DNA of 64,000 bases from a virus (IMGVR_UViG_3300027795_000039:68027-132026), one strand, 5' to 3'. Positions 930 through 33,517 are shown, numbered from the stretch's first letter. Notes: generated by a model from the letters alone, not told the origin. A program made the numbers and translations.

Positions 930-1047
930 CACGTTTTTGCTTTCCATCATCTTGAGCTGGTGACTGCTGCTCAAACGCAGTCAACAGCTCATCATCAACG
1001 TTAAAGTCTTCAGGGAACCAGCCAGGTAGTCCGGAGTCAGTGGGCAC
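886..1047 (-). CDS. 53-aa acidic protein coupled to the upstream ART gene
   Basis: Below the ORF-track cutoff; GTG 1047 overlaps the end of 1037..4231; MPTDSGLPGWFPEDFNVDDELLTAFEQ... Confidence 0.4.
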   Translation of the reverse strand: MPTDSGLPGWFPEDFNVDDELLTAFEQQSPAQDDGKQKRDEQRKQTKQEDTGK

Positions 1048-4000
1048 TGAAATCCTTTTGGGTTACATAAACGTTCATGATGCCATCTGCTGTCTGCACT
1101 TTGTCCACTGAGTACCGGCCACCAGTAACCACTTCACCTTCATTGAACAAAGACAATTTTGACAGACTCAAACCCTTCGCCCCGGGAGAGGTATGTATAA
1201 TTACTTTTGTCTTCCCCGGTTCACCAGTCTTATCTGCGAAACTGGCTGCCCACTCTGGTTTAGTCGTCCAGGACGCGACTGGCATATCCATGGTTTGACC
1301 AGGTTGGAACATCCGCTTCGCATCGGCATCACCCAACGTAATACCACGCGATATCTCACCATGCTGCACATCAGCATCTTTGTCAACCATACCGAGGAAC
1401 TTGTGCGCTTCCTGGCAGCCATTCCCACAATTTTTCGGTGGTGTGTTCGTGGACAACAGCCGGTGAAGCTCGTGAGTAAAGTCTTCACCTTCTTTGCCGT
1501 GCATGTATGAGTTGTTTGAGTACCGGAATGAGTTGGACCAGATACTAACGAGGTGTTGCTTTGTGGCCGTTGACAGCTCACCCGGCTTCGGTACTCGTGC
1601 CAATGCAGCCGGTGTGGTTGTTCCCGCAATAGCCTTAACAGCCTCAGCTGGCGTCTTATGGGTGGTGGTTGTACCATCACCATGCGTGGCTTCAAATGAT
1701 CCACCTGGCATATAACGAACCGCGCCAACTTCAGCGCCAGTTTTCTTGCTAACGACTGATCCATCATCATTAAGTTTGATGTCTGCCGATTTTACAGATG
1801 ATGCTGGTGTAGCTGTCTTCGGTTTACCAGCTGAATCACTAGATGCGATAACATCTGAACCAGCTACCTTCTTCGGCTTCGCCTCAGTTGCACCACTGTG
1901 ATCAGCTGACTTAGGCAGTTGCGTCAAATACACGTGACGCTGGCCTTTTTTATCAACCTCATCGCGGTCAACTCTAAAATTGCTATTGCGATTCAAAATC
2001 AACTCAGATTCCGTGGGTACAAATGATGCAGAACCTGGTTTGACAACCTTCGTGCCCTTTGGCACAGTGATATGCATAATAGCTGAATCAACACCTTCAC
2101 CGAAGTTTTTCTCGGCTATGTCCGGTTCAGCACTCGTACTAACGTACGCTTTATCGCTAAACGTTTTACCAACGCTCTTACCAGCTGGACCAAGTAGCTG
2201 ACTCGCCTGCGCCATGCCACGGTGAACGGTGATATCTCGATTAAGCGGTTTCGCACTGTCAAATGCACTATCGATGCTTTTAACATTTGGACTGTTGACA
2301 CTGTCAATGTTACCACCACGCAACTGACCATTAAGAGAATAGTAGTCATTAGCGGTGTAGTTGCTAACAGCTTTTACGGCTGCGGGTGACGCACCAGACG
2401 CAGCAACATCAGACATCTTCTTATAATCAGCAAGCGCATTCGCCGCAGCTGATTTTTTATCGTCAACCACGTTTGTTGGTTTAGCGGAAGTAACCGCTTC
2501 ACTCGGTTTAGCGACAGCCATCGTGGACTTTGCACCACCACGCCGCGCGATCTCATCTTTAACCGACTTATGCGCCCGCGATACCTTACCGTCTTTACCA
2601 AGCTTCGTCGCACGGTTCGCGAATGCCTGGTCAGCGGCCTTCAGATCGTCATCTGAAGCATCGTGGACGATGTTCTTCCGGCTAGCAGCCGTTGGTGTTT
2701 TAGTCAGCTGATCCGCGAATTTACTAGTCGTATTAGTGGTTTTTGATGTATCTGATGGTTTTACGGACTCAACGACTTTATCATTATCACCATGTGGTAG
2801 CACCGTAACATGAATCTGCCGGTTTCCATTTTTATCTAGCTCATCAGAATCAACATGAAACTTGGCGTTAGGCGCCATCGTATACTCATGAACCGCATTC
2901 CTCGACTTATTCAGTGCTTGACGTGATGATGAGTCACCAGTGATCAGATCTTTTGCTTTCAGCATCTGAGTACCTGAAGGAGCATGCACGGTAATATGTG
3001 CAGCATCCTTACCCTGGTACATATTTGCGATACCACCGATTGACGTCATGGACGTAAAGCCTTTATCCTGGAACGTCTTACCATTCATTGAGCCAACGGG
3101 ACCGAAGATATCATTGGCACCGTGTACCCCACGGTGTAGCAATGTAGGTTCTTCGGTTGGTTTTGCCTTGCCAATCAACTTTGTTAGCCCATCAACAGCT
3201 TTTTGTTTACTAGCTGGAACTTTATCGTTTCGCAATGCTTTATTCGTAGCACCGAATGCAGAACTGTAATAAACCGATTCTGCGTTCTTCTTATCCGCGT
3301 CTGAAATCCCACCTGGTACTTCACCATAATGCGTGGTATCCCAGAGTGGTATGCTGGTTAGTTCTTTGCCAGTATCAGGACTTGGTTTTTCAGTTGCTGG
3401 TTTCTTACCACTAACAGCTGGTTTAATACCACTTTGCTGGACAGCTGGCTTCTCAACACTCGTAACCGGTTTTTTCGCCTCATCTGCACCATCGAAATCA
3501 CGCTTCGTCTTACCGCTGTTGTAATGACCCATCAGTGCGCGGACAGCGGTTTCTTTATCTTTATGCGACGAGGTATGACCATCGGAGTGAGTCGCGGTAA
3601 ATTTACCTGCGGCGTTCTTATCAACGTGGCCCACACCGTAACCGGATGGCTTGTGCAGGATGGTGCCATCACGCTTAACCTGCAGATCATCACGTGATAT
3701 CTTACCTGGCTTCTCACCACAAGGAGGACGCACACAAATGAAGCCATGAATATAACCCTCAGGGCCACCGAGCTTAATGAGATCCGGCTGGCTCTGCCAG
3801 AAAAAATCCGGCACCACCGACTTGGTCTTCGAGTGTTCAGCCTTTAGCTTCTCCCACTCAGCCAGCGCCTTACTAGCCGCAGCGCGAACCTCCGGTGTCA
3901 CCTTACCACGACCAGATGCCCAGCGTTTCACCGCGCCAATGGCAATGGAAATAGCCTCGGACTCAGTGTGACCTGACTTAATCAGTGAGTGAGCGATGTT

Positions 4001-4231
4001 CTGGATGTACGCGGGGAGCTGTGCTTTTTTATCTCCCCAAAGACCGTGAGTACCGAGTAGGTGATGCATCGTAGATAGTGTTGCGGTTTCAGCAGATTTA
4101 ATAGTATTACCGGTGTTAGCACGCTTTTGATGCGCTATGTGAAGTTTATCCCGCTGTATCGACGTCATTCCAGCTGGGATAATGACACGGTTCCCAGCCT
4201 GGTCTTGCCCGGATACCTCTATGGTTTCCAT
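1037..4231 (-). CDS. polyvalent virion protein with one GYIHG tag and three ADP-ribosyltransferase-like domains
   Basis: KLGGPEGYIHGFICVRPPC; VIP2-like LLHRG..KGFTSMTS..HEY and VHRGM..AYVSTS..ESELIL; third ART ISRG..ASWT..EGEVV. Confidence 0.88.
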   Translation of the reverse strand: METIEVSGQDQAGNRVIIPAGMTSIQRDKLHIAHQKRANTGNTIKSAETATLSTMHHLLGTHGLWGDKKAQLPAYIQNIAHSLIKSGHTESEAISIAIGAVKRWASGRGKVTPEVRAAASKALAEWEKLKAEHSKTKSVVPDFFWQSQPDLIKLGGPEGYIHGFICVRPPCGEKPGKISRDDLQVKRDGTILHKPSGYGVGHVDKNAAGKFTATHSDGHTSSHKDKETAVRALMGHYNSGKTKRDFDGADEAKKPVTSVEKPAVQQSGIKPAVSGKKPATEKPSPDTGKELTSIPLWDTTHYGEVPGGISDADKKNAESVYYSSAFGATNKALRNDKVPASKQKAVDGLTKLIGKAKPTEEPTLLHRGVHGANDIFGPVGSMNGKTFQDKGFTSMTSIGGIANMYQGKDAAHITVHAPSGTQMLKAKDLITGDSSSRQALNKSRNAVHEYTMAPNAKFHVDSDELDKNGNRQIHVTVLPHGDNDKVVESVKPSDTSKTTNTTSKFADQLTKTPTAASRKNIVHDASDDDLKAADQAFANRATKLGKDGKVSRAHKSVKDEIARRGGAKSTMAVAKPSEAVTSAKPTNVVDDKKSAAANALADYKKMSDVAASGASPAAVKAVSNYTANDYYSLNGQLRGGNIDSVNSPNVKSIDSAFDSAKPLNRDITVHRGMAQASQLLGPAGKSVGKTFSDKAYVSTSAEPDIAEKNFGEGVDSAIMHITVPKGTKVVKPGSASFVPTESELILNRNSNFRVDRDEVDKKGQRHVYLTQLPKSADHSGATEAKPKKVAGSDVIASSDSAGKPKTATPASSVKSADIKLNDDGSVVSKKTGAEVGAVRYMPGGSFEATHGDGTTTTHKTPAEAVKAIAGTTTPAALARVPKPGELSTATKQHLVSIWSNSFRYSNNSYMHGKEGEDFTHELHRLLSTNTPPKNCGNGCQEAHKFLGMVDKDADVQHGEISRGITLGDADAKRMFQPGQTMDMPVASWTTKPEWAASFADKTGEPGKTKVIIHTSPGAKGLSLSKLSLFNEGEVVTGGRYSVDKVQTADGIMNVYVTQKDFSAH

Positions 4232-5922
4232 GGATCAAGACCATTCTCACTCATGTAAGCATGTACTTGACTTTGCAACTGCGGTAGCATTTGTAGGTCA
4301 CCAAGTGCAAGTTGACCAGCTGGATTTTCATGGTGCTGTGAAGCAAGTTCAGCGAATTGTTCACGTGCAGCTGTGTTTGCGCCAACTACATCAGCACGGA
4401 AATGTGGTTCAGTACTACCGGGATACATTATTTCATCAATACCCTGGTATTTACTTATTTCTCTACTAAGCTGACGCCACTTAGGTGTACCTGAGTATTC
4501 ACCGTTCTCATCGAGGAAATGCATCGCCTCATGGACTGGAGCGTATTTGTCGCTTCCAGCAGCGATAAGCATTTTTTTGTTCCTGTGATCAGACAAAGCG
4601 TTAACGTTCAGGTTATAGCCAGCTTCACCTGGCGTCATCTGGTAATCAAAACCGTATTTATTCATCTGTTCTCTAGTAAGGCTCTTACCAGGAACAGATA
4701 TAATTTTTACTTTCTTTTTCAGGAGTTTATCCTGGTTTTTATCAGAAATACGACCAAGTGAATTCAGCAGAAGGCCGTGCTCATAATTAGACTCATCTTC
4801 CATTGTTACTGCCTGTGATAGCTGACGGCCTAGAGCGTGAGTCCATTTACCGTGATCATCACGTGATTCAAGCGGGTTGAAGTGAAAGCTAACTTTCTCA
4901 ACAACCACGCTGTTGTTGATTTTACTTACTGTGTTTTCATCACCAGCCATGAAGTCGTTGTTCCATGGCTGCTTCCCAGCCTTCATCGCCAACGCGGCGT
5001 GACTCGCCATAGCGAGTGCCATCGAATTCGCATCATCGGGATCCATGCCACCGTGTACTAGCTCAGAAGCCACAGCAGCAGCCACGTGGGCAATTGCGCC
5101 GGGTGATATAGACGTATCTGCCTTGGCAACACCGAGTGCTGTCACAGGCGCTCGGTGGAACGACATTGGGATCTTGCCGAGAACGGTTCTGGCTCGTGCC
5201 GCTACACCTGCCACCATCTTCGGCGCCCCGTGAGTTTTGATGTGCACGGCAGACTTAGCGAAAACTTTACCGATTTCCGGCAAATGCTCGTGAAGCAATG
5301 GTGCCAGCGCTACCAGTGAAGCACCACCAGTAAAGAATGATAGAGCGATGGACGCGATAATTGTACCGATTTCAATACCGATATCAATTTTCGAGTCTTT
5401 TTTCTGCTCGTCTTTCAACTCTTTTTGCAGGTCAGCGATGCGTTCATCGACTTGCTTCGCGTGCTCAGCAAGGAGGTCATCAATCGGTGATTTAGTACCT
5501 TGTGCTTCTTTCGCAGCCTCAGCTGTGATTGCCTCAAGTGTGGGGTGATCACTTGGCTTAGCTTCACCAGCTACCTCAGCTGGTTTCTCCGCTGGTTTTT
5601 CTGGTGGTTTCCTGGTTTCCTCAGGCTTTACTGCTTTGTTATGACGGCGAGCGACAGCGGCAACAGCATCCGCACGCTTCTCGTGATTGCTGTTTTTATC
5701 CTCACCTGGCCGTGACGCAACATACTTACCACCGCGCTTGCCAACTTGTCCCACGGCGTAGCCGGTTGGACGGTGTACCACGGTTCCATTACGGGTAACA
5801 CCGAGGTCAGCCGCTTTTACCTTACCTGGACCATCGTGACCACACGGCGGACGCACGCATACCCAGCCGTGTTCATACCCCTCCGGTCCCACCTTCGTGA
5901 TCTCCGGTGCCATCACACTCAT
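4219..5922 (-). CDS. tagged cargo protein with hydrophobic helical segment and C-terminal zincin metallopeptidase
   Basis: Start moved to MSVMAPEITKVGPEGYEHGW (GAGG upstream, follows the 5930 stop); hydrophobic IGTIIASIALSFFTGGASLVAL; FNPLESRDDHGKWT motif; HEAMH...EQFAE. Confidence 0.8.
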   Translation of the reverse strand: MSVMAPEITKVGPEGYEHGWVCVRPPCGHDGPGKVKAADLGVTRNGTVVHRPTGYAVGQVGKRGGKYVASRPGEDKNSNHEKRADAVAAVARRHNKAVKPEETRKPPEKPAEKPAEVAGEAKPSDHPTLEAITAEAAKEAQGTKSPIDDLLAEHAKQVDERIADLQKELKDEQKKDSKIDIGIEIGTIIASIALSFFTGGASLVALAPLLHEHLPEIGKVFAKSAVHIKTHGAPKMVAGVAARARTVLGKIPMSFHRAPVTALGVAKADTSISPGAIAHVAAAVASELVHGGMDPDDANSMALAMASHAALAMKAGKQPWNNDFMAGDENTVSKINNSVVVEKVSFHFNPLESRDDHGKWTHALGRQLSQAVTMEDESNYEHGLLLNSLGRISDKNQDKLLKKKVKIISVPGKSLTREQMNKYGFDYQMTPGEAGYNLNVNALSDHRNKKMLIAAGSDKYAPVHEAMHFLDENGEYSGTPKWRQLSREISKYQGIDEIMYPGSTEPHFRADVVGANTAAREQFAELASQHHENPAGQLALGDLQMLPQLQSQVHAYMSENGLDPWKP

Positions 5923-5929
5923 CGGGGCC

Positions 5930-6274
5930 TCACGTTCTATTTTGACCAGGTGGTCCAGATATACCAGCGAAGGTCGTGGTACCATCCTGCTGCAATCGTT
6001 CTGCCCCAGGCCGGTCCCATTCCATAAGCCACTTCGCGGTCTGGATCTTAAGCTGCTGTGGCGCGGGAATCCAGGATGGCAACTGGGTAAATTTCTTAAC
6101 CCGCTGCACGTCTTCCTCAGTGGGCGGGTAATGGATTCCCTTAAACAGGTGCTCGAACTGGTCAATATCACTGCCATCATAGTGCTGGAAATCCCAGGAT
6201 AGCGTTTTCAGCCAGTCTTCATTCCAGTCATCATTACTAAACGAGTACGGCTGAGTCAAAGAGCTTTCGGTCAC
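5930..6274 (-). CDS. Trp-rich small protein (NEDW family), candidate immunity protein
   Basis: NEDW..SWD...DG...PP...D..RV..FTQLPSW..AP..L; paralogous to 22226..22498 and the MuF N-terminus. Confidence 0.75.
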   Translation of the reverse strand: MTESSLTQPYSFSNDDWNEDWLKTLSWDFQHYDGSDIDQFEHLFKGIHYPPTEEDVQRVKKFTQLPSWIPAPQQLKIQTAKWLMEWDRPGAERLQQDGTTTFAGISGPPGQNRT

Positions 6275-6276
6275 GA

Positions 6277-9200
6277 TCAGCCCTTCGACTTTTCGATCTT
6301 AACCTGCCCCGGTGCTGCCATGACCACCCACTCTCGTTCCTTCAAACAACCGTTACCAGTCCGAGGAGTCGACATGATCAGGTTAGCGGGAACACTCGCA
6401 GCAACCTGAACACCAGAACTACCGTAACCGTAGAACTTACCTGCTTCACCGCTGGCGTGCGACCACGATGACAACGGCCGCCAGTCTGATTCCGCTACAT
6501 CAGCTGTGCTACCGGCTGGCTTTAGCTTTGGGTTAAAATGACTACCACTAGGGTCAAGATTAGTCTTCAACCAATTTGGTATCTCATTGTTTGCGTCAAA
6601 CCCCATCGCTCGGTGAAGTGTAACACTCGTGATACCAGCTTTTTTCAGCTCTCGCTGAGTAACGTTATATTGCGCTCGGACAAATTCGCGAAGTGCAGCC
6701 TGGTTATCGTTGTAGTATTTGTCGACCTGAGTTTGCAGATCACCAGTTTCCGCAGCCCACTTCTTCGCGCTTGGAAGGCCAAACTCATCAGCAGCCGCAC
6801 GCTGCACACCAAGCGCACCGAGGTGACTGTCGTTTGAGGTTTGCTTCCATACCTCAATTGCAGAGCTAACCAGCTCTGCACGGAGGTGACGCTCATCTTC
6901 GGCGGTAAACGGCTCATTTTTATCTGGAGCAAGATCAGCCAGGTACGCTGACAGCAACTTACGTGCCACATCAGCTTCATCAGCTACCTTCAGCTTCTCC
7001 GATGGTGTATTTGAATAAGTACTAAACGGCTTGTAACCAACGCTTCCATAACTACTCGTTACGATTCCTTTACTGGAACCAATCGCAGCAAGCACTTGTC
7101 TTTGCGATAGTGGCAAGCCACTAGCAGCGAGCAATTCTTGTGTTTCCGGTTTCGCCAGGTCTTGCCTCACATCGGCCGGAACCGTGTTCTTATTTTGCAA
7201 CCGGTTTAGCAGGTCTTCAACTATCGGACGGCTTTTATTAGCATTCGCACTAAAATAGTTTCCTGGTTCGTTGAAAACATCAGCGCTGTGATGAACTGAA
7301 ACTGCACTAATACCTTCTTTGGCGATGCTGTTAACTAGTGAATTTGGCAAACGTGAATTGTCATTGTTACCACCGGCCATCTTCGCCATGTCCTGTGTGG
7401 AAACACTACTCATCTCATCAGCAATCAGGTGAGCCGCGTTGTTTTTGTACTTACCAGCATCGCTAGTGTCAACACTTTTACCGGTTACCTTGTTACCGGT
7501 AGCCATGTAACCCTCGGCGATGCTACTGCCGATGTCGCCAACACGGGCGGATGTAAACTGACCAGGTGCCTCTTCAGCTGTCAGCTTCTCGGCGGCTGCT
7601 GGCTTCACCTTAATGGAATCAGCCAGTTTCTTCACATCGGGTGAAAACGACTTTGAGTCATCACCAGCATACTTACCATTCATGACCTTAGCGAGGTTAC
7701 GCAAGCGAGATTCTGCTTCACTTACGTTACCTTCATCATGAAGCTTAGCAGCCTGACTAAGCATACCCTTATACTGCGCCTTGTAGTATGAAGCAATATG
7801 TGTGTTTTCCAGATCAGCACGCAGCTTTGCTGCTCGATCGCCGAATGACTCAAAGCTAAGATCTTTATCATGCTGCTTCTCGAGTGCTGCAAGCGACTTC
7901 TTAAGCCCCGCTCGTGCAGCAGTGATCTTATTTTTTGTATCACCATATGCGTACTTACTAGCGTCAGCGAGTGATATGTCAAGTTTCCGCGCAGACCTGA
8001 TAACATCAGCAGCTTTACCTGCCTTCAACTGGGCGGCTACTGCATCCGAGTCTCTCAGCGATGCTACCATACCACTGCTACCAGGTATAAGTGATTCAGC
8101 ATTCTTTGTCGCATCAGCGATCTGTGATGCCAGCCCGTGTGCCAGTTGCACCGTGTACGGTGTTTCTGGTTTTACTTCACTTGCTTTTTTCAGGCCAGCA
8201 GCCACGGAGATCTTGTCGTGGATGGCCTGGATCGCGTTAATCTGCTTATCAGTGGTATTTGTATTTACACCATCTGTAACATATTGATCGAGGATATCAT
8301 GCAAATCATCGAGTATGCCGTGCAAGCTATCGAGTGCGCCTTGCGTGTTACCGTCAGTTAGCTGACTGCTAACAGCGTCTAGTGTATCTTTTTCATCAGC
8401 AAGAAATGGCAAGCTAGCCTTAGCTGTGGCGATACTAGCCTGAGCGCTTTCCACATCAGCTGACTTCAGTTTTTTCGGGACTTTTTTCAAACCGGCTGCG
8501 ACAGAGAGCTTGTTGTGGATAGCCTGCATCGCAGCGATTTTTTTATCATCATCTGTAGCATCGATGATCTCTTGCAAGTGGCTAAGTGCACCTGGTGTGT
8601 CATTAGCCAGCACTTTGGCTTTAGCATTATTGAGTATAGTTTGGCCAACCAAACCAAATGCCAGGTCCGGATTATTCTGCGCAGCGGTAATACTATCATA
8701 AACTGCTTTAGCATCAGCTGATTTGAGGTTTTTCGGTTTCTTCGGTGCTTTAGTAAGACCGGCAGCTGTGGAAAGCTTGTCATGAGCGATTTGAAGTTTA
8801 CTAAGCGTACTTTCATCATATGTATCAGCATTATCAATTACTGATTGCAGATCACTCAACGCACCGTGAGAATCACCCGCTACCAGTTTACTTTTAGCGC
8901 TTTCCAGTAGTTTATCATTGCTAGTGTGCGCTGCAAAATCGTTTTGTGCTTTTACTATTGCAAGGTGAATTGCCTCAACATCAGCCTGCTTCAACTTCGG
9001 TACCTTTGATGCACTGCCAAGGCCGGCAGCTGCAGATATCTTAGCATGAATAGCTTTAACTGCTTCAGCTTCATCAGAACTGCCGTAATCATCTAGACTA
9101 TCACTCAGTTCATGGAGTGAATCAAGCGCACCTTGCGTGTCACCGTCTGACAATTTCGCGCTGATAACATCAAGCTTGTTGTAAGAACCACTACCAGGCA

Positions 9201-13303: not shown

Positions 13304-13364
13304 CCTACCTTTTATCCAGTTTTCGGGTTACTCGCGCGTTAAAGTGCTAAGCGGTAAAACGATA

Positions 13365-13889: not shown

Positions 13890-13968
13890 TGACTTATCGT
13901 CACCTTTCCTACCTTGCCACCTTGCCCTGGCATGTTATTATTTTATCGTATTCACAGCGATAAAAACA

Positions 13969-14199
13969 CTACTGAGAACGTGCATCATATTCAGCTGATG
14001 CCTCTCGAATAGCTGCTTCATTATCAGGCCGTATTATCGCGTTACTAAATATTCCACTCGGCTCATCCCAGTAACCACGTGCCAGGATAGACGTGACTGG
14101 CAGGATTGTTGAGCCATCTGGTCCTCGCAGCATTCCACAGCTGAGATCATTATCACCGATGAGCTGGGCACCATCATCTCTTACCGCGAGAATTTTCAT
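13969..14199 (-). CDS. small protein following the DUF3626-like domain; possible immunity protein
   Basis: 76 aa with SILARGYW motif, starting 3 nt after the upstream stop. Confidence 0.6.
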   Translation of the reverse strand: MKILAVRDDGAQLIGDNDLSCGMLRGPDGSTILPVTSILARGYWDEPSGIFSNAIIRPDNEAAIREASAEYDARSQ

Positions 14200-14202
14200 T
14201 AT

Positions 14203-22229: not shown

Positions 22230-22498
22230 GTTACTGGTCCACTCAGGTGGTTGTATGCTGCCAGGAACTGCCCTGCCTCGACCTTCAGCTGCCGTGGCGC
22301 GGCTTGCCAGCATGCCAGCTGGGTAAAATCACGAACACGATTCACATCGGCTGAGCTCGGCGGCTGTGTCACCTCCGGCCACATCTGCGCGAACGTGGTA
22401 ACGGGTGTACCATCGTGATTCCACAGGTCCCAGCTGCCAAGCTTCGTCCAGTCCTCATTCGCATCAGCTCGTGAGAACGGATATGACCAGGTGCTCAC
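22226..22498 (-). CDS. Trp-rich small protein (NEDW family), candidate immunity protein
   Basis: NEDWTKLGSWDLWNHDG..PP...RVRDFTQLACWQAAP. Confidence 0.75.
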   Translation of the reverse strand: MSTWSYPFSRADANEDWTKLGSWDLWNHDGTPVTTFAQMWPEVTQPPSSADVNRVRDFTQLACWQAAPRQLKVEAGQFLAAYNHLSGPVT

Positions 22499-22506
22499 GT
22501 GTCATC

Positions 22507-27300: not shown

Positions 27301-27608
27301 ATGCTGGCGAGTTGCTGATCGCGTTCCCAGCCGGGCCACTGCGCATCGGTTACCGATTTGCTGGCGCTACCAATTGACACTGGGTCAAGTAGCTCAGCAA
27401 CTTCATGCTGAAGTGTCGCCGGGGCAGCCTGCCACGACGGCAATGACATAAGCGAGCGCAGGTACTGGAGGTCAGCCAGCATCGGCGGATAACCATAGCC
27501 GGGGATCAGCTGGCTGAGATCGGTAACTGGTGAACCGTCATCGTTCCACCGATCCCATGACCGGGTACGAATCCAATCTTCGTTCAGATCAGTCAAAGAT
27601 GCCGTCAC
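24348..27608 (-). CDS. MuF / SPP1 gp7-like head morphogenesis protein carrying three tagged ART modules and an N-terminal NEDW domain
   Basis: GTGA overlap with the portal stop; RAQMIAQTE..KSW..DERVCKIC..PPGHPNCRC; ART motifs VYRG..SSFS..EQE, MYHGT..GIYLT..Y..E, LYRG..GSFS..ERE. Confidence 0.9.
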   Translation of the reverse strand: MTASLTDLNEDWIRTRSWDRWNDDGSPVTDLSQLIPGYGYPPMLADLQYLRSLMSLPSWQAAPATLQHEVAELLDPVSIGSASKSVTDAQWPGWERDQQLASIYAPQIAAAFSDGMASARSFLAQLITGEVRVTPTYAAQEVRNRIAAALRPVLTPLWTDGYTLGAISARHVLANLPAAPASTASASAILTKVGPKGYIHGWIKVDPDAIAAWQHGEVSYDDIAHGISDHDAKIPDHARSIAESLRHPETSGKPVYRGMAWTWDNQDKAKAFMSQMTPGNTFTIPASSFSEDRESAKEFASADSSVLLEVDPGSKGIDMSKTPFTRDGVQVTNEQEWIAGGKYRVNGVTTGRGGRLVVQATQLNDLSSVGTTKSAMITKVGPKGYIHGWKRVAGWSPAKDDNDAINWAKNSAVPQEMYHGTASSDKATSITDHGFDESYIGENSGNRGWAGEGIYLTERPDYAATYGIAADDGKVLSTRVNVKNPWDSSMANRADDDVWSFQNQYRAAHPSTSQDELSTAIRDEAEKRGHDSIIQRGKDGKINEMVAFSPQQVTITGSRSAMNVALGKSVIKPVIKLNTGTNPYPEYATGPDWGEWEPGDVESALKIGTGPRLQQLLHQWGVNTIQSVSSTKLDDLAKYIGIALATGQDANSLASDISSLLNVPSRAQMIAQTEISRASSAASLDQYLAAGVSMKSWLVAPDERVCKICRAAEAEGSIPLSQAFLNGVDAPPGHPNCRCAASPMSVGDFDLSDMTVEPLPGFNLVPLGQPNLVKVGAKGYIHGWIFVGIPGEGDEIKHDSLGHGIITSHDEKHVTAQFDDGSTHTFNRVTPQPAGVKHWSMAKVPQLREYLKRNISDQDRADIQAALDKKTPKVVPAPDIKLRSDLAVLKPARSGKFNMNQRYQALDELEKTPDGKALVKILDTFQNTGGKQVARIRTDVEKSVNGGDITPGRKKTVNLLLSAIRDSDVSEQHLYRGMMIPGDAAERYKTGSPIDISLGSFSSNADVGRSFSHVSGGQHVTAKNTTPVLLDWVDGPKKALPLERLAGNPAYFNEREYLATGNFEVTGTRIAGDGTLVVNVRQVKPL

Positions 27609-30600
27609 GTTACCGCCGTCACCTTCCGCGACGAGTCGACGCCGACGCTGCCAGGCGCGGCCATGATCACCCATTCTTCTTCCAGCAAGCAACCGAACCC
27701 GGTGCGCGGGGTGCTGAATACCAGCTCGGCCGGGACCGTTGTCTTTAGTACCAGCCCGGTCTCACCTGAGGTACGCATCTCATCGGTGTAAGCGAACTCA
27801 TTGGCTACTGTAGCCGCGCCGGACCACGATGAGATTGGGCGCCACTTCGGCGCGCTAACCTCATCTCCAGCCTTCATCGCCTTACCGTCATCACCAAATG
27901 CCCACGGCGCGGTATCGCCGGTGACGTGCATCCCGCGGTAAACCGTGACGTGGGTAATCCCAGCGGCCTTCAGGTCAGCTTGGGTCCGGTTGTATTGTGA
28001 CCGGACCATGGCCCGTAGCGCCTTTTCATTCTTAACGTAAACGTCGTTTACCTGGTCAGCCACGTCACCTGACTCCTTGGCCCAATCGGCCACGTTGCTT
28101 AGCCTCAGCTCATCGGTTACGGCGCGCTGCGTGGCCAAGGATAGGATGTCGTTGTCGTTCGATGACATGGCCCAGCGGGCGATGATGCTTCTGAAAGCGT
28201 TATCTCTGATTTTCTTCAGATCATTTTCGGTAACCGGTGGTAGGTCAGCTCCATGACCAATCTGGTCAGCCTTCTTCATTAGCGCGGCTTTAGCCGCTTC
28301 CACGCCGCCGTCATCCTTGAACTCCGGTAGGTTCTTCTCGGTAAACCCACGGTAACCGGGAAAACCAGGCGTTAGCTTAGTCATGGCTTCCAGTGACTGG
28401 CGATCGGTGATTTTAGCAGCCACGGCTCGGATGGCGTTCGCCTGCGCTTTGATCTTTTTCACTGACACTGGCCCAGCGTACGCCATTACGTAATCATCCG
28501 GATGCTCGGCTACGTCGGGGTTCACGCCTGGATCGATGGTAGTGCGATTGCTGCTGATCTTCAGCAGATCAGCGGTGCTGAAGTCCTTCATGTCCTTAGC
28601 CAGCGCCGCGGCTACCGACGCCTTCAGGGTAGGCGCATCGGCTTTCTTTACCTTACCAGCTCGACCAGACAGCGGCTGGTTCAAGAACGCTCGTAGTTCA
28701 CCGGTTACCTTCGCTCCAGGAACAGCAGTAGCAGATGTTCGCGGGGTACCATTAGGAATTGCAGCGTGAACTTGAGCGTAAGGTGATTGCTCACTGAAAT
28801 CATGCCGGGTTTTACCGCTATTGTAATGACCTGCCAGGGTGCCTAGCGCGTTATCACGGCCAGCATGACTGGAAACGTGGCCATCTGAATGAGTAATTAC
28901 GTACTTACCGTTGTCATGCACGATGCTACCGACCTGGTAACCGGAAGGTTTGTGCATTATCGTGCCATTACGTTTGACCTGTAGGTCTGAGGCTTTAATC
29001 TTGTCCGGTTTTTCGCCACATGGCGGCCTTACGCAGATGAAACCGTGAATGTAACCATCTGGTCCGACCTTCAGTACGTCAGCAGTTTCCACTCCACGAA
29101 AGGGGGCGGCGCCAGTTTTAGCCACATCTTCTACTATATCAACTGGTTGACTGTCTTGCCACTGGTAGTCACTCTTCGCCAGCACCACGTCACTCGCACG
29201 TGCCTTCGCCAGATTCACCGCGTTACGTGGGTCCAGCCCCTCGGCCATGGCCTTCGCGACGTTAGCGAGCAATGACTCCGAAATGTAGCGTGCTTCCCAC
29301 GTGGTAACGTGGCGGCCCTTGGTAAGGTGGCGAGTAAGTGCCTCGAGTTCGGCATCCGCTCGTTTTTGAGCGAGGTTACCAGCGTAAAGTGGGTGTGAGA
29401 TTTCCTGATTAAGACGTGGATCATCATCATCCCACGGGTTGATCGCGGCACTGGCGATCTGCTGATGACTGTATGGCATCCGCCGGATAACTTTGACTGG
29501 TGCAGCGCTCCGGTAATTCGGTTCCACATCGTAACCATTACTTGCGGTGGCGTGCTGGGAATCGCGTTCGAATTGCCCGGTGGGCTCCACCTGGTACACG
29601 CTGTACCGGTCATCTTTCGGTGATTCCGGTTCCGGGTCATCACGCATACCCGCGTACTCGGCGGCGCGTCCAGGATCACGAGTTAGGTAAACATGATTCG
29701 GTGAGGACTCATCATGTGAACCAGTGCGCTCACTACCCGGCACCTGGCTCGCTGGGCTGATCAGATCACCAGGGCTGAAGTGTTTCGTGGTACCGTGGTA
29801 GAACACCGGTTTAGCATCCACGGCTGGCCCCTCGTGAACCCAGCCGTGGATGTACCCCTTCGGACCCACCTTGTTGATCACAACTGAGGCAGCAGACTTC
29901 TTGGTACTCGCTGCTTCACTGTTTGCGGCCTGCGCCGCGTTGTGAGCTGGTGTCGGTTTACCACTCTGCGCCGCATTTTGATTCTGAGCTGCTTCGGCCT
30001 TACCTTCCGCACCAGCTGCACCAGTTGGTTGTGGCTTAGCGCCACCAGGCATACCAGGCGGCACCGTCGGCTCATTCATCCGGACCTCATGTGACTCTTG
30101 CGAAATTTGAGTCCGGGCTTGCGTCGCTGCGGTATTCGCCTGAGTAGCACCGGTCTGTGCTTGAGTCTGACCAGCTTGCGCCTGGGTCTGCTGAGCCTGG
30201 GCGGCGGACTGGGCAGCGGCGTTCTGCGCATTCGCCACGGCGGTGGAAAGCGGGGTGGGACCGGTGGGTGTAACGATAAGCGGCTCAGACGACTCTTCGA
30301 GGCCGTACGGCTGCAGGTTCAGTTCCTGCCGGCACTCATCGAGAGTACGCATGCCATTCTGGAACTGCTGGACGAGGACACCGGTGAGGGCATCCATGTC
30401 TTCTTCTTGCTGCAACCCCTCGAAAGTGAACATCATGTCGGTCTGGCCGCACACGTGCTCGAGGATGCCATTGAAGATGTCCTGCAGGAACTGCAGCATA
30501 GGCGTGATATTCACGTCTTGCGAGTTATTCTGCGTCATCTTCGACATCTGGTTCGCCGCACCAGATGAGGTTGATGATGACCGGCCTGGACTAAGGCCGA

Positions 30601-31882
30601 GCTCGAGTGGTGTAACACCGAATGCCATCGTCACCTGCGACATGACCAGCTGGTCAAGTTCATCAGCAGTAACAACTGGCCGTTGTGGCTCGACGTGGCT
30701 ACCTGGTGGTAGTACAATGAGTTTTTGCTTCCACGCGGGATCACCGGCAATGGCGTTGAGAGCGTCTTGCAATTCCCTGAGCTGGTTGGGTGTCATTGCG
30801 GTGTCGCCTGGGATGATGTACGCTGCTGGAACGGTGCCCTCTTCGAAGAAATCATATTGGTATGATTGCTTCTGAAGGCCAGTCATGATCGGGATAATGG
30901 CACGTTCAATGGCGCTGAACCCGTAGGGCGTCCAAGCGCGAGGAACCATCGGCAGATACAGCAGCTGGTCACCGCGGAATTGTGCCACATCTTGGCCAGA
31001 CATGTTGGCTTCTTCAATGTCCCGGTTCATGATCATCGTCATGTAGTCGGAACGTGGAACACCGTAGAGGTATTGTTGGTAACCGACGGCAGGAGGCCTA
31101 GGTATTCCACCATGCAAGTCAACGAGTGGTCTGATCGTGGACCCAGTTAGCAGCATGAGGCTGTCGAGGTCACTGCCGAGTACGCCCTTACCTTGCCTCT
31201 TACCCCAAACAGGCCGGATAAGAATGCTAAGCGCATCGTAAACGTAGATGTCTTCAAGCACCGCACTTAGCCACAGGCTGTAGCTGAAGTAATTCGGATC
31301 TGGCCGGTTGAAGAACTTGGTGGCTTTTGCTTGGCGCTTACCAAAGTCTGCCATTTGTGCTGGTGACCCTTGGTATGCCTTAGCGGCAGCGGGTGTGGGG
31401 ACGATGTCCCACTGTACACCACGTATTTGGTTTTTCCGGTATTCAATACACGCGCGGGCTACTGAGTAAATGTCTGCCAGCCGGCGCATGGTCTCGAAGT
31501 TAGTTAGCCTGAGGCCCTCATTACCAGGCTGCCCCGTCGGCAGGTTCCAGCCGACGGTGTATTCCCACCGTCGTGGTTCTGGTCGCTCGAATTCCGGTGG
31601 CGGGGAGTCAACTGGTACTGGCAAGATCGGGCTGAATGGGCCAAACGCACCGGCGGTAAACGACTCAGTGGGCCGAGGAAGGAATGGCCCGTAACTTCTG
31701 GCGTAGCCACCCTCATTCGCCAGTTGTGCAGCCAATGGGCTGAACTGGCCGATGGATGGTGCATTCTGGCCACGGCCGCCATTATATGGAATGCTACCTT
31801 GTGGTGCTGGTGTTGGCCGCGCACCACCTGGCGCGCTCGGAATACTCGCCGCACCACGGAGCACCGCACCTCTTTTAGCCAC
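27605..31882 (-). CDS. portal protein extended with an Arr-like ART and a second ART-like toxin domain
   Basis: VARACIEYRK..RP..LEDIYVYDAL..YGFSAIE..FFEEGTVP..AFGVTPLELG..TLDECRQELNL; two GYIHG tags; AAGGAGG RBS. Confidence 0.9.
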   Translation of the reverse strand: MAKRGAVLRGAASIPSAPGGARPTPAPQGSIPYNGGRGQNAPSIGQFSPLAAQLANEGGYARSYGPFLPRPTESFTAGAFGPFSPILPVPVDSPPPEFERPEPRRWEYTVGWNLPTGQPGNEGLRLTNFETMRRLADIYSVARACIEYRKNQIRGVQWDIVPTPAAAKAYQGSPAQMADFGKRQAKATKFFNRPDPNYFSYSLWLSAVLEDIYVYDALSILIRPVWGKRQGKGVLGSDLDSLMLLTGSTIRPLVDLHGGIPRPPAVGYQQYLYGVPRSDYMTMIMNRDIEEANMSGQDVAQFRGDQLLYLPMVPRAWTPYGFSAIERAIIPIMTGLQKQSYQYDFFEEGTVPAAYIIPGDTAMTPNQLRELQDALNAIAGDPAWKQKLIVLPPGSHVEPQRPVVTADELDQLVMSQVTMAFGVTPLELGLSPGRSSSTSSGAANQMSKMTQNNSQDVNITPMLQFLQDIFNGILEHVCGQTDMMFTFEGLQQEEDMDALTGVLVQQFQNGMRTLDECRQELNLQPYGLEESSEPLIVTPTGPTPLSTAVANAQNAAAQSAAQAQQTQAQAGQTQAQTGATQANTAATQARTQISQESHEVRMNEPTVPPGMPGGAKPQPTGAAGAEGKAEAAQNQNAAQSGKPTPAHNAAQAANSEAASTKKSAASVVINKVGPKGYIHGWVHEGPAVDAKPVFYHGTTKHFSPGDLISPASQVPGSERTGSHDESSPNHVYLTRDPGRAAEYAGMRDDPEPESPKDDRYSVYQVEPTGQFERDSQHATASNGYDVEPNYRSAAPVKVIRRMPYSHQQIASAAINPWDDDDPRLNQEISHPLYAGNLAQKRADAELEALTRHLTKGRHVTTWEARYISESLLANVAKAMAEGLDPRNAVNLAKARASDVVLAKSDYQWQDSQPVDIVEDVAKTGAAPFRGVETADVLKVGPDGYIHGFICVRPPCGEKPDKIKASDLQVKRNGTIMHKPSGYQVGSIVHDNGKYVITHSDGHVSSHAGRDNALGTLAGHYNSGKTRHDFSEQSPYAQVHAAIPNGTPRTSATAVPGAKVTGELRAFLNQPLSGRAGKVKKADAPTLKASVAAALAKDMKDFSTADLLKISSNRTTIDPGVNPDVAEHPDDYVMAYAGPVSVKKIKAQANAIRAVAAKITDRQSLEAMTKLTPGFPGYRGFTEKNLPEFKDDGGVEAAKAALMKKADQIGHGADLPPVTENDLKKIRDNAFRSIIARWAMSSNDNDILSLATQRAVTDELRLSNVADWAKESGDVADQVNDVYVKNEKALRAMVRSQYNRTQADLKAAGITHVTVYRGMHVTGDTAPWAFGDDGKAMKAGDEVSAPKWRPISSWSGAATVANEFAYTDEMRTSGETGLVLKTTVPAELVFSTPRTGFGCLLEEEWVIMAAPGSVGVDSSRKVTAVT

Positions 31883-31912
31883 GTGCGGCCCTCCTTGTAG
31901 TATAATTCAGCT

Positions 31913-32392
31913 ATGGACCAGGAATGGGGTAAGGAAAATATGGTATGGCTATAGCAACGTGGCGAGTACTGGATCGCTCGACTTGCTGATGGGTATGACA
32001 TCCATGTTAAGCCGTGGAGATGGCAGTTCAAGGTGATGACACGTCAGCAGCTTCAACGTTACGGTGCCACTTACGGCCTAACGGAATTCCGGCCGCCAGT
32101 CATCTTCATCCAGAACGCGTTGTTGTACCTGCGGGTAACTGATGGTGATAAGAAAGCCATTCCACTCATCGATGAGATGCTCGTTCACGAACTCATTCAT
32201 GCCACAGGTATCAGCGGACACGGACCGGATTTCAAACGCGCTTACGGTAAGATCTACCCGTGGTCCAAGCCTGGACCGGTAACTGAGTTTGACCCAGGCA
32301 CATCCCGCCGTGTGCTTTGGTCGCAGATCATACGGCGGCTGCCATTATCCTCACTTACACTGTCATGCGTGCTACGGTGCCAGTTCAAGTGA
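31913..32392 (+). pseudogene. SprT-like zinc metalloprotease with in-frame TAG at 31952 (or a short form starting at 32033)
   Basis: TATAAT 31901-31906, ATG 31913 in frame with ORF 32033; LVHELIHATGISGHGPDF. Confidence 0.5.
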
Positions 32393-33517
32393 GATGACCG
32401 ATGATGACGTACCAGTAACCTTAAACTTACTATTACGCGGTAGAACCAGCTCTTTACTTTCTGGATCACCCTTCATCACGTTTGTACCTGACGGCACCGT
32501 AATTTTCATAACCATGGGTGCGCCATCCACCATGTCGCTAAACGCTGCGGGACCCATAGTACCGGCGGCATACTGCAACGCGATACCTGGATTTGACGTT
32601 GTTGAGATAAAGCCGGCATCAGTAAATGATACCTTACTCTGTGACAAAGCTTGCTTCATCTCAGGTGTCATTATAACACCGCGGTACATGGTGGCTGGTT
32701 CACTTAGCGCACCGTGTTGTATAGCCAAGTCCATGTTACCGGCAATACCGCGCAGCTGGTCATCATCATAATCACCAGTATTACGGCCAGTACGAAGAAA
32801 TTCGTTGACAACATCACCATCACTCATGTAATACTGTGTTGCCTCGGCCATGGTTGCTGGTACCTTTCCAGGCCGCAACGCGTTTAGCGGCTTGGTACCG
32901 AATACCGGCTTCGCTGGCTTACTGCCACGTAGCGCCGCTTTAACCTGGTCGATGGCTTCCTCAGGTATTGGTGTACTGGCGTAGTCTGCCGTTTCATTGA
33001 CGCGTTTGGCCAGCTCTTTATCCTTAGCCGCACCGCCAGCTCTCTGGATGGCCTTCGCATACGCGGTGTACTTAGCGCCGTTGGCAATCTGCGACTGCGC
33101 GCGTTCTAGTGCTGTTGCCGTTTTATCATCACCGTTATCACGCGCGTACCGCGCCAGCGCACCGGTATTATGATATGATATCACTCGTCTGATGGTTTGG
33201 CTTCCATACGTGTTTACCACATCACCGTTACTAAGCACGGTGTCATCGGCGTGACGTGTTTCAACCATATCGCCAACGCGTTCCTGAAGATCAGCAATTT
33301 TCTTACCATCTGCCGTTATGGTCTGAGCGTCCCAGTCAGTGACAGCCTGTGCATACTTGCCGCATGGCGGACGCACGCAGATGTACCCGTGGATGTATCC
33401 TTCCTTACCAACCTTTTCCAATTCCGGTTCCACCGAACCAGCATACCACGCATCCAATGCGTTGTTTCTAATTCGTTGTCGTTCTATATTAAAATCACCG
33501 AATAGATCGGCGATCAT
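32372..33517 (-). CDS. tagged VIP2-like ADP-ribosyltransferase
   Basis: KVGKEGYIHGYICVRPPC; VNEFLR..MYRGV..GFISTT..SKELVLPRNSKF. Confidence 0.87.
   Translation of the reverse strand: MIADLFGDFNIERQRIRNNALDAWYAGSVEPELEKVGKEGYIHGYICVRPPCGKYAQAVTDWDAQTITADGKKIADLQERVGDMVETRHADDTVLSNGDVVNTYGSQTIRRVISYHNTGALARYARDNGDDKTATALERAQSQIANGAKYTAYAKAIQRAGGAAKDKELAKRVNETADYASTPIPEEAIDQVKAALRGSKPAKPVFGTKPLNALRPGKVPATMAEATQYYMSDGDVVNEFLRTGRNTGDYDDDQLRGIAGNMDLAIQHGALSEPATMYRGVIMTPEMKQALSQSKVSFTDAGFISTTSNPGIALQYAAGTMGPAAFSDMVDGAPMVMKITVPSGTNVMKGDPESKELVLPRNSKFKVTGTSSSVISLELAP

Follow-up and report, generated by a model that had tools for sequence, protein, structure and literature searches.

Genes and tag copies at the locus

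The analysed window comprises 64,000 nucleotides (positions 68027-132026) of a 132 kb contig of an uncultured phage (IMGVR_UViG_3300027795_000039), which also encodes TerL, portal, MuF, protease-scaffold, capsid and tail genes. Ten large minus-strand ORFs in the window share a peptide of ~23 residues, hereafter the tag, with the consensus [PA]-[DE]-[LVI]-x-K-V-G-[PKA]-[EKH]-G-Y-[IV]-H-G-[WYF]-[IV]-x-V-x-P-P-x-G (Table 1). Regex scans of these ORFs and of all six reading frames recovered exactly fifteen copies, all on the minus strand and at the positions and in the ten genes where a sequence-only reading of this DNA had placed them, with one, two, three, one, one and three copies, respectively, in the first six tagged genes of Table 1 and a single copy in each of the last four. 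The six-frame scan of the window likewise bore out the absence of the tag to the right of 33.6 kb, while the continuation CV[RN]PPCG is present in the claimed number of copies (8/15). The tag block does not, however, end at the protease as had been proposed: five further copies are located 840, 4105, 5390, 12295 and 21865 nt to the left of the window start, one of them within the protease-scaffold gene, so that the whole contig contains twenty.

Table 1. Coordinates of the genes and tag copies of the head-gene block (window numbering unless stated otherwise)
Feature	Coordinates	Strand	G of core GY	Description
381-aa cargo gene	32372..33517	-		N-terminal 'LFG' leader (recurrent leader family), tag (GY aa 40), C-terminal ADP-ribosyltransferase (ART)
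1425-aa portal fusion	27605..31882	-		Portal core, tag (aa 676), Arr-like ART, conserved segment, tag (aa 943), type A header, C-terminal domain
1114-aa MuF fusion	24348..27692	-		Tag (aa 225), tag (aa 412), ART-PolyVal, MuF, tag (aa 807) with Tudor-like header
614-aa gene	22507..24351	-		NUDIX (Pfam, aa 58-109), tag (aa 127), Tudor-like header, unannotated C-terminus
393-aa gene	21132..22313	-		Unannotated N-domain, tag (aa 131), Zeta-toxin-like kinase
2314-aa polyprotein	14203..21147	-		Three tags (aa 497, 898, 1257), ARTs
174-aa Ig-like (Big_1) protein	13365..13889	-		No tag; bare P-T-I-T-K-G half-site (aa 65)
252-aa single-module cargo gene	12545..13303	-		Leader, then tag (aa 36)
2162-aa protein	6277..12765	-		One tag (aa 362)
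653-aa protein	4219..6180	-		One tag (aa 101), type A header
1064-aa protein	1037..4231	-		N-domain, tag (aa 159), type A header, Alt-like ART
1373-aa protease-scaffold gene	genome 64052-68173	-		Window 1..147 covers its first 49 codons
Tag copy 1	33359..33427	-	33400	CVRPPCG type; 55.2 bits
Tag copy 2	29816..29884	-	29857	35.7 bits
Tag copy 3	29015..29083	-	29056	CVRPPCG, then type A header; 51.7 bits
Tag copy 4	26979..27047	-	27020	45.7 bits
Tag copy 5	26418..26486	-	26459	37.2 bits
Tag copy 6	25233..25301	-	25274	Then UvrD/PcrA-CTD-like Tudor header; 43.9 bits
Tag copy 7	23932..24000	-	23973	CVNPPCG, HD replacing HG; 46.5 bits
Tag copy 8	21882..21950	-	21923	44.3 bits
Tag copy 9	19618..19686	-	19659	CVRPPCG, Tudor-like header; 55.5 bits
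Tag copy 10	18415..18483	-	18456	47.8 bits
Tag copy 11	17338..17406	-	17379	CVRPPCG, type B header; 51.0 bits
Tag copy 12	13157..13225	-	13198	45.3 bits
Tag copy 13	11641..11709	-	11682	CVRPPCG, type B header; 52.1 bits
Tag copy 14	5839..5907	-	5880	GYEHG, CVRPPCG; 56.5 bits
Tag copy 15	3716..3787	-	3757	K-L-G-G variant, one additional residue; 45.2 bits

The Pfam family ADPrib_exo_Tox is matched by the 381-aa protein (aa 226-371, E 1.5e-9), by two stretches of the 2314-aa polyprotein (best at aa 1635-1794), which also matches phrog_8314 (aa 1973-2198), and by the 1064-aa protein (aa 607-770), where phrog_802 corresponds to an Alt-like ART. The portal fusion incorporates Phage_portal (aa 181-522; phrog_2662, aa 100-676) and Arr-ms (aa 694-800) domains, and the MuF fusion ART-PolyVal (aa 442-581) and Phage_Mu_F (aa 670-769; NCBIfam phageSPP1_gp7). 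A Zeta_toxin domain (aa 186-342, E 4.4e-24) is found in the 393-aa protein, and the Big_1 match of the untagged 174-aa protein (E 1.7e-4) falls under the cut-off. No Pfam or NCBIfam family was matched by the 252-aa cargo protein, and no Pfam or PHROG family by the 2162-aa protein. A search of eleven window and ten outside proteins for an embedded zincin-like metallopeptidase yielded no peptidase family at E <= 0.01. Large parts of the scanned proteins carry no family annotation.

In the window the tags fall between Pfam domains, at module boundaries. The module-opening role that had been proposed for the tag holds across 213 copies in 150 representative proteins, where a module follows every copy and the tag is never C-terminal; the last tag is at least 59 aa from the C-terminus, and tag-to-tag gaps range from 55 to 1127 aa. 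Up to three to four copies are present in one polypeptide, and tags occur in fusions to the portal, MuF and protease-scaffold proteins. Many single-module proteins have recurrent N-terminal leaders ahead of the tag, while in some proteins the tag follows just 8-13 residues after the predicted gene start. On related contigs, modules have been shuffled among polyproteins and genes that stand alone. The common module ending of the type x-K|S/A/Q/R that had also been claimed was not seen, with no residue exceeding 22 % at positions upstream of -9 (213 instances).

In the protease-scaffold protein, a putative S78-like prohead protease is accompanied by a pseudo-tag lacking the Lys (~aa 215) and a complete tag (aa 329), as well as by an acidic and zinc-ribbon region and, at the C-terminus, a coiled-coil-like part. 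The match of the protease domain to Pfam PF04586 (Peptidase_S78) is sub-threshold (E 0.068, 13.8 bits; cut-off 21), and it matches phrog_21715 (1.1e-15) and phrog_617 (1.1e-4). The His and Ser columns are invariant in an alignment of eleven homologues, with E-I-S-L-V-D-R-P-A-N conserved, and 526 relatives are present in IMG/VR. In tag-bearing phages, a tag or pseudo-tag ~65 aa past the protease domain is found in 4/83 protease-scaffold proteins, and in none of the others. One scaffold (locus L010) contains a tag copy without the Lys; K-less pseudo-tags are present in locus L007 as well as in the genome analysed here.

Conservation and distribution of the tag

With a profile constructed from 199 instances from outside this genome, the twenty copies among the 111 ORFs of the genome scored 35.7-56.9 bits and the next best match 2.7 bits; the recurrence of the tag is not due to chance. 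The residues K, G, G, Y and H are invariant, with the Lys, Tyr and His all within nine residues, and the front half, Lys included, is preserved in 94 % of the 213 copies. Cysteines are present at both +7 and +12 in 55 % of these, while among the Cys-lacking copies the commonest residue at +7 is Lys (20 %) and at +12 Gly (12 %) or Asp (8 %). The best stretches reported in Pfam, NCBIfam and PHROG searches cover no tag position, and no description of the tag was found in the literature.

The profile matched 416 protein clusters (50 % identity) among 1.84 billion, with no match in 50,697 GenBank phages or 185,579 prokaryote genomes, and all carriers are metagenomic contigs of uncultured phages. 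The predicted confinement to head-gene blocks was largely confirmed in 17 + 7 related loci. The tag is restricted to the head-gene blocks of one protease clade: within a 29-row clade of the protease tree (SH-aLRT 95), fifteen rows are tag-positive and eleven tag-negative, and within the 49-row clade of the other branch 0/16 adequately flanked rows are tag-positive. The sole remaining tag-positive row (L019) is placed on a long branch beside the 49-row clade.

Peptide identity between copies of the tag core is 78 %, while third codon positions agree at 0.26, where composition alone would give 0.277 (535 codon pairs). The tag DNA is 60-91 % identical to one reference copy over 55-56 nt, with a few pairs of tags 86-91 % identical over 56 nt, and no exact repeats of at least 24 nt occur at the tags in window 1-34000. 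Selection acts on the protein, as the peptide is conserved across all 416 clusters. In AlphaFold2 models the tag has a pLDDT of 50-65 beside a header domain of >94 and, in a second context, of 42-51 beside a Tudor-like domain of 73-90, and appears to have no autonomous fold. On the basis of its scrambled codons and unstructured models, the tag thus looks like a selected linear motif that is recognised by a common partner. The regions downstream of the tag belong to at least four unrelated classes. In more distant phages the same Tudor-like domain always follows the tag.

Half-sites in capsid and scaffold proteins

The front half of the tag, P-x-[LVI]-x-K, is found elsewhere in the bare form P-x-[LV]-[VT]-K-[GS]. 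In the 38,910 residues of the genome's ORFs, the pattern P.[LIV][VIT]KG occurs four times: the capsid N-terminus contains two occurrences, and the scaffold part and the Big_1 head-block protein one each. The half-site pattern was chosen post hoc, after inspection of the data. With the wider form P.[LIVA][VIT]K[GS], 9/9 matches in the tag-found loci (86,087 residues) and 23/25 in an independent protease-found set were located in capsid or protease-scaffold proteins. The latter set includes fourteen half-sites in protease-scaffold proteins (53,128 aa) and nine in capsid proteins (26,372 aa; every one at aa 36-61, representing one conserved position counted over many homologues), with none in portal proteins (50,148 aa) and two elsewhere (208,036 aa). 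Comparison of a leader plus tag profile with the capsid gave a weak alignment over 17 columns (E 0.043, probability 1.2 %), in which p-d-l-v-K-V-G-x-E-G-Y-I is aligned against R-M-P-x-l-V-K-G-a-G-Y-a, while the tag-alone profile showed no match to the capsid N-terminus in profile-profile comparison (probability 0.15). The capsid N-terminus and protease-scaffold proteins are classic prohead-protease substrates. L022-L031, the protease relatives nearest in sequence (61-68 % identity), lack tags, and the portal extensions they have contain no half-sites; the protease family thus functions without the tag.

A putative processing signal

As its front half recurs alone almost only in capsid and scaffold proteins, the tag is, on balance, probably a processing signal for the head protease, with the cut probably placed after the Lys. 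A cut at this residue had been proposed before, and the half-sites, together with the location of the tags at module boundaries, lend it indirect support. The carriers of the tag, namely portal, MuF and protease-scaffold proteins, are furthermore of kinds known inside proheads. In a single lineage of uncultured phages, the tag would mark where each cargo module begins in multi-enzyme ('polyvalent') proteins that are packaged into the head. Such cargo may enter the prohead either through fusion to portal, MuF or the protease-scaffold or by means of a short leader at its N-terminus. The putative HK97-type (S78-like) prohead protease, itself fused to the scaffold, would then recognise the tag and cut it, most probably after the invariant Lys. 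The freed modules, including ARTs, NUDIX, a zeta-like kinase and unannotated domains, would then be ejected with the DNA. Against this processing reading, most of the conserved part follows the proposed cut, and its length greatly exceeds that of the prohead-protease sites known so far, so that something besides cleavage is under selection. The conserved stretch past the Lys may strengthen binding to the protease or serve in docking, and the K-less tag copy and pseudo-tags suit binding better than cutting.

A combined loading and release cassette can be envisaged more tentatively, and is somewhat doubtful. The back half (G-x-x-G-Y-I-H-G-W...) would attach a protein of any kind to a core component, such as the scaffold-fused protease, and thereby have it incorporated into the prohead, while the front half would mimic the capsid maturation site and be cut after the Lys; the N-terminal peptide kept on the freed effectors could then provide a shared handle during ejection via the tail. 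Such a cassette would represent a natural, portable and sequence-defined means of filling a capsid with arbitrary enzymes, and would explain how the phage can afford twenty cargo modules.

The injection of phage enzymes with the DNA is known, while the rules for their loading and release are known only for T4 and a few giant phages. In uncultured phages, at least 416 protein clusters have cargo modules flagged by one recognisable peptide. If the tag is a processing or loading signal, the injected arsenal of this lineage, including domains without a family, could be inventoried from sequence only, the specificity of S78-type head proteases would be predicted, and a compact handle would be available to pack foreign proteins into capsids. 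The tag also makes a long-standing proposal testable, namely the division of polyvalent proteins into individual effectors by cleavage.

Alternative explanations

It is unlikely that the tag serves solely for addressing or docking, loading cargo by binding a prohead component (the scaffold, the protease as a non-cleaving receptor, the capsid inner surface or the portal) and containing no cleavage site. The ~18 conserved residues past the Lys are more than a protease site needs, the tag is modelled as unstructured alone, like docking motifs, K-less copies are retained in scaffold proteins, and tags situated 8-13 residues from predicted starts leave no space for another address. However, one label per protein would suffice, making up to three to four copies at module boundaries needless, and the portal, MuF and protease-scaffold fusions are already prohead-internal. 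Furthermore, the address could instead reside in the recurrent leaders that many single-module proteins have upstream of the tag, and the widely retained Lys-containing front half matches the bare sites of capsid and scaffold proteins.

It is improbable that the tag caps the downstream domain or forms a small metal or disulfide knuckle of it (His and Cys-x4-Cys), or that it docks each effector to one host hub after injection. The frequent Cys pair would suit a knuckle, its replacement by Lys (+7) and Gly or Asp (+12) may suggest two contacting positions, and in the more distant phages the invariable Tudor-like neighbour is compatible with a cap. Nevertheless, the downstream regions are of at least four unrelated classes, AlphaFold2 packs the tag on neither header domain, and the tag is also found within protease-scaffold proteins, which have no host role.

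A recombination cassette junction, as in polymorphic toxins, at which modules are swapped and which has no biochemical partner, is very improbable. While the modules do move between polyproteins and stand-alone genes and a few pairs of tags are highly similar as DNA, third-codon identity in the core does not exceed the compositional expectation, exact repeats of at least 24 nt are absent at the tags in window 1-34000, and conservation of the peptide over the 416 clusters requires selection at the protein level. Equally far-fetched is a self-cleaving junction requiring no protease, which could draw on the closely spaced invariant Lys, Tyr and His, as autoprocessing requires a fold where this segment is predicted to be unstructured, no known autoprocessing module was matched in Pfam, NCBIfam and PDB sequence searches with tag-bearing pieces, and the distribution of the tag follows one protease clade.

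Comparison with known systems

In T4, the capsid targeting sequence (CTS) is a short N-terminal leader, which is lost by cleavage at a three-residue L/I-x-E site, the gp21 prohead protease removing it from the internal proteins and Alt. The CTS cargo is described as diverse anti-host proteins, an ART among them, that have just a short conserved stretch in common; loading into the prohead core is followed by injection together with the DNA (PMC3012670, PMC9503650). The tag similarly is one short conserved sequence common to diverse cargo, ARTs included. Unlike the CTS, it spans ~23 residues, mostly past the proposed cut, is internal as well as near N-termini, and is repeated in polyproteins, with up to three copies per gene in the window. 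No L/I-x-E site is common to the tag copies, and the putative protease resembles S78 enzymes instead of gp21. There is no sequence similarity to the T4 system. The prohead proteases of the giant phages SPN3US (gp245) and phiKZ cut head and ejection proteins, the portal and themselves at A-X-E to remove propeptides, with 13/14 mapped cuts removing N-terminal propeptides (PMC10052503). This motif comprises three residues, against ~23 in the tag, and the available part of that source describes neither a portable tag nor a multi-module polyprotein (PMC10052503).

Phage-type polyvalent proteins (Iyer, Burroughs, Anand, de Souza, Aravind 2017) are large, contain many conflict domains (ART, Nudix, MuF and others) and have head-gene neighbours. 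For these, and for ART and Nudix effectors fused to MuF or portal, packaging and injection are predicted, and processing is considered possible (PMC5512222, PMC9503650). Processing is attributed mainly to embedded zincin-like peptidases (PMC5512222), and the text of this source, as far as available, describes no inter-module tag and does not contain the word 'linker'. Packaged polyvalent effectors are already known, while the tag itself was not found described. The polyvalent character is evident here in multiple unrelated effector domains per polypeptide (portal with Arr-like ART; ART-PolyVal with MuF), in the two ADPrib_exo_Tox stretches and phrog_8314 of the 2314-aa protein, and in the location of the genes among those for phage virion morphogenesis. 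Unlike in many polyvalent proteins, a zincin-like domain, which is common though not obligatory in the family, was not found.

HK97 has an S78-fold maturation protease, which cleaves the delta domain and has the scaffold and capsid protein as substrates, and which is said in the sequence-only reading to cut after Lys. A short peptide suffices for loading into the HK97 prohead, this targeting peptide being the C-terminal capsid-targeting tail of the protease itself, and to our knowledge HK97 has no repeated cargo tag. The junction motifs of polymorphic toxins, such as VENN of CdiA, are short conserved peptides that border a variable toxin module and serve secretion systems and cassette exchange. 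The tag differs from such motifs in that the underlying DNA is not conserved and its setting is the phage head.

Tag copies in the phage genome

The window, bases 68027-132026, forms the right half of a contig of 132,026 bp. The phage is tailed, with a large terminase and tail genes (see the table below). According to Pfam and PHROGs, aside from the portal and MuF fusions (see the table below), named cargo in the minus-strand gene block includes NUDIX, a zeta-toxin-like kinase and several Alt/exoenzyme-type ADP-ribosyltransferases (ARTs), while the 2162-aa and 653-aa proteins of the block produced zero matches in Pfam and PHROGs. Five tag carriers returned a single source name in a cluster look-up, with a MutT/NUDIX label. 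Homing-endonuclease-like genes (GIY-YIG/HNH/DUF559 types) adjoin the head genes at three places. Furthermore, a 215,099-bp contig on record encodes proteins identical to two cargo proteins of the present phage, and the 132-kb contig may thus be only part of the genome.

Regular-expression searches of the ORFs and all six frames yielded exactly fifteen copies of the tag, in ten genes and all on the minus strand, at the places where the sequence-only reading had put them. Its further claims, that no copy occurs right of 33.6 kb in the window and that eight of the fifteen continue as CV[RN]PPCG, were borne out. Five additional copies are found on the contig to the left of the window, with the capsid gene position taken from blast maps, bringing the whole contig to twenty. 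When a profile built from 199 outside instances was run against the 111 ORFs of the genome, these twenty copies scored between 35.7 and 56.9 bits, with the next match at 2.7 bits. In the tagless relatives L022, L024 and L031, the counterpart of residues ~835-908 of the present portal protein adjoins the portal core directly (compared with window 29780-31882). In the present phage the first tag and the Arr-like ART look like an insertion between the portal core and these residues.

Features of the phage genome, the tag leaders and the tag-associated headers (window positions unless marked)
Feature	Position	Strand	Remark
Large terminase	41778-43286		
Tail genes	48-61 kb		
Homing endonuclease	33619-34632	+	adjoins head genes
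Homing-endonuclease-like genes	genome 55843-56640, 59253-60068		adjoin head genes
Eleven large ORFs	33517 down to 1037	minus	
Portal, running on into Arr-like ART	27605-31882	minus	Pfam, PHROGs
MuF protein, ART-PolyVal domain in same chain	24348-27692	minus	Pfam, PHROGs
Ig-like 174-aa protein	13365-13889		Big_1, below cut-off; tagless
Tag copy inside 1373-aa protease-scaffold gene	left of window		n=1
Tag copies in small genes ahead of capsid gene	left of window		n=2
Tag copies in 442-aa and 452-aa genes past capsid gene	left of window		n=2
Header, ~65 residues, five strands and helix ending H-Y-N	28742-29161, 3443-3862, 5566-5985, 17065-17484, 11368-11787	minus	
Tudor-like header, ~35 residues behind three tags	25089-25310, 19474-19695, 23788-24009	minus	
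Leader 'x-x-L-F-G-d-L...K-r-x-I'			modelled as helix
Leader 'R-L-T-W-x-P-G-D-v-x-F'			
Leader 'W-E-P-V-S-F...K-I-K-L-R-L-A-D-L'			
Leader 'Y-D-P-Y-Q-L-R-S-V-H-D'			

Distribution and consensus of the tag

Using a 20-copy profile against 1.84 billion representative proteins, 416 tag matches could be distinguished at E <= 0.001, of which 116 remained at <= 1e-10 and nine at <= 1e-30. The best 150 of the 416 proteins incorporate 213 copies, with one copy in 100 proteins, two in 38, three in eleven and four in one. These copies give the logo [PA]-[DE]-[LVI]-x-K-V-G-[PKA]-[EKH]-G-Y-[IV]-H-G-[WYF]-[IV]-[CK]-V-[RG]-P-P-[CG]-G. Its flanks are rich in Ala, Gly and Ser and are not conserved. Seventeen tag loci, with at most thirteen copies each, were found in IMG/VR, and every copy is on the head-gene strand. 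Nothing real was retrieved from 50,697 GenBank phage records with 110-aa and 40-aa queries, and among 185,579 prokaryote species, represented by one genome each, 0/6 pattern matches were confirmed as the tag. The tag falls outside every Pfam, NCBIfam and PHROG model. Tag strings such as GYIHG, YIHGW, VRPPCG and KVGPEG occur in no relevant paper in a literal-string search of main texts.

The protease-scaffold protein and the history of the tag

The 1373-aa protein, with its first 49 codons at window 1-147, is predicted to combine a prohead protease and a scaffold-like protein in one chain. The N-terminal part matches phrog_21715 (1.1e-15) and, weakly and below the cut-off, Peptidase_S78 (E 0.068), while the His and Ser columns and the E-I-S-L-V-D-R-P-A-N motif are invariant in eleven homologues. 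A filamin match of the protease N-terminus in a sequence search of solved structures was rejected as chance (E 0.43). By eye, the tag comes after the protease domain and is succeeded by an acidic stretch, then zinc ribbons, with the C-terminus long and helical, and in the relatives the capsid gene comes next after the protease-scaffold gene. The protease is in frame with a tail of ~1150 residues (genome 64052-68173 and L003:6052-10173 in a related locus), incorporating an Asp/Ser/Asn run of extreme acidity, several zinc-ribbon pairs of the C-x2-C type and the helical C-terminus, and the same build is seen in 83 relatives.

Among the best 80 of 526 loci found by their protease, seven contain tags (L032, L033, L035, L037, L058, L059 and L087). 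The closest protease relatives in this set (61-68% identity) contain none; in these, portal, protease-scaffold and capsid form a compact module, and half-sites, i.e. the front half of the tag (P-x-[LV]-x-K) occurring without the rest, are absent from the long extensions of the portals. A quick IQ-TREE phylogeny of the protease domain, from which the duplicate contigs L011, L021 and L059 and proteins with fewer than 125 residues ahead of the E-I-S-L-V-D motif were left out, confined the tags to a 29-row clade (SH-aLRT 95), with tags in fifteen rows and none in eleven, bearing in mind that the upstream flank of 37/80 rows is too short for scoring as tagless. The sole exception is L019, a tagged row on a long branch beside the 49-row clade, in which 0/16 adequately flanked rows are tagged. 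Within the 29-row clade at least six tag gains or losses are needed, two of them forced by well-supported branches. The tag is thus an add-on, which arrived as the cargo expanded within a single clade of the protease.

A probable role in processing of packaged polyproteins

The half-site pattern P.[LIV][VIT]KG, chosen after the data were seen, occurs four times in the genome's 38,910 ORF residues, namely at aa 40 and 85 of the capsid N-terminal exon, at aa 775 of the scaffold part and in the block's Ig-like protein. In the latter, a bare P-T-I-T-K-G at aa 65 directly precedes the Ig-like part, and this protein, which is encoded inside the cargo block, may undergo processing and serve as a decoration or head protein. 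Across the tag-found loci (86,087 residues), nine matches to the slightly wider P.[LIVA][VIT]K[GS] are found, six in capsid N-termini and three in protease-scaffold proteins. In an independent set, comprising 337,684 ORF residues from the best 80 of 526 IMG/VR protease relatives, this pattern occurs fourteen times in protease-scaffold proteins, nine times in capsid proteins, never in portals and twice elsewhere. All nine capsid half-sites (aa 36-61; R-M-P-x-L-V-K-G-A-G-Y) represent a single conserved position counted across many homologues. The scaffold half-sites, at aa 196-949 in differing sequence contexts, are therefore more independent. HK97-type proteases classically act on the capsid protein and the scaffold. 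Most simply, P-x-[LV]-x-K would be the cleavage site of the present protease family, and the tag would contain it. A leader-plus-tag profile aligned with the capsid N-terminus exactly at the half-site, albeit weakly (E 0.043), while profile-profile comparison of the tag-only profile with the capsid N-terminus yielded nothing beyond three aligned columns (probability 0.15). Co-folding of the protease domain with the tag scored 0.00 in two control-free runs, a result which bears on binding in neither direction.

On balance, the tag appears to be a processing signal, at which the scaffold-fused head protease would cut, probably after the invariant Lys, thereby separating the packaged polyproteins into single effectors. 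A tag, or a pseudo-tag lacking the Lys, is located ~65 residues past the protease domain in 4/83 protease-scaffold proteins, all from tag-bearing phages, and the scaffold of locus L010 contains a Lys-less copy further in. These Lys-less copies hint that the back half of the tag may have some role besides being cut. The tag may also load cargo, as proposed in the sequence-only reading; a combined model, the boldest considered, in which the tag both loads and releases the cargo, is conceivable if rather doubtful. Three tag carriers, the portal, MuF and protease-scaffold proteins, are inside proheads by construction, and tags also occur in stand-alone genes. A purely docking role for the tag is considered unlikely. 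Of the 150 representatives (best 150 of 416), 72 have their first tag among the leading 80 residues, behind a few recurrent leaders. The leader families occur in stand-alone cargo (P0036-P0039, P0049, P0058, P0063-P0065, P0085 and other representative proteins; window 33400-33517), and could be the real capsid-targeting peptides.

Processing at the tag would work like the T4 CTS/gp21 system, in which head-loaded cargo carries a short shared sequence, as outlined in PMC3012670, although the tag is not a member of that system. It would similarly resemble what happens in giant phages, where head and ejection proteins are processed at A-X-E, as outlined in PMC10052503. The tag carriers belong to the polyvalent proteins as defined by Iyer et al. 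2017 (PMC5512222), and fusions of ART and Nudix domains to MuF, portal and capsid-processing peptidase feature in the accounts of PMC5512222 and PMC9503650. What is new here is a long, portable and repeated junction tag, conserved mostly beyond the presumed cut.

The tag as a linear motif and its followers

Copies share 78% identity over the nine-residue core, while third-base agreement at shared four-fold codons is 0.26, against 0.277 expected from composition (535 pairs). With alike peptides and third bases at the composition level, selection thus acts on the peptide; the DNA beneath the tags holds no exact block, and a function as recombination handle is less likely. AlphaFold2 modelling of a 37-row alignment gave an N-terminal helix (residues 3-28), a tag at pLDDT 50-65 and a five-strand-plus-helix header, the domain right behind the tag, at >94, while in a 21-row alignment of the tag and next domain these reached 42-51 and 73-90, respectively. 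The tag is thus predicted to have no fold of its own. In the best 150 of 416 proteins at least 59 residues separate the last tag from the C-terminus, and the distance between tags is 55-1127 residues. The followers include two related beta-rich header classes, one Tudor-like class and many unrelated sequences. Peptide selection, the lack of a fold, the position always heading something and the varied followers are four results that indicate a linear motif recognised by a shared partner; the tag is less likely to be a structural cap, a host-docking peptide or a self-cleavage junction.

A Foldseek search of the type A header against PDB produced no match at E <= 0.001. The ~65-residue header, modelled at pLDDT >94, has no PDB match (Foldseek) and belongs to no Pfam family; it is also present at L002:14387-14836, in a related locus. 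In UvrD/PcrA helicases, the C-terminal Tudor-like domain is the counterpart of the Tudor-like header (profile match to 7egt_B, E 1.5e-4). In more distant phages the Tudor-like header is located behind every tag. The UvrD/PcrA domain binds RNA polymerase, and Alt of T4 is an ART aimed at the host polymerase. By analogy, RNA polymerase binding by the Tudor-like header would fit ARTs directed against the host polymerase, as with T4 Alt.
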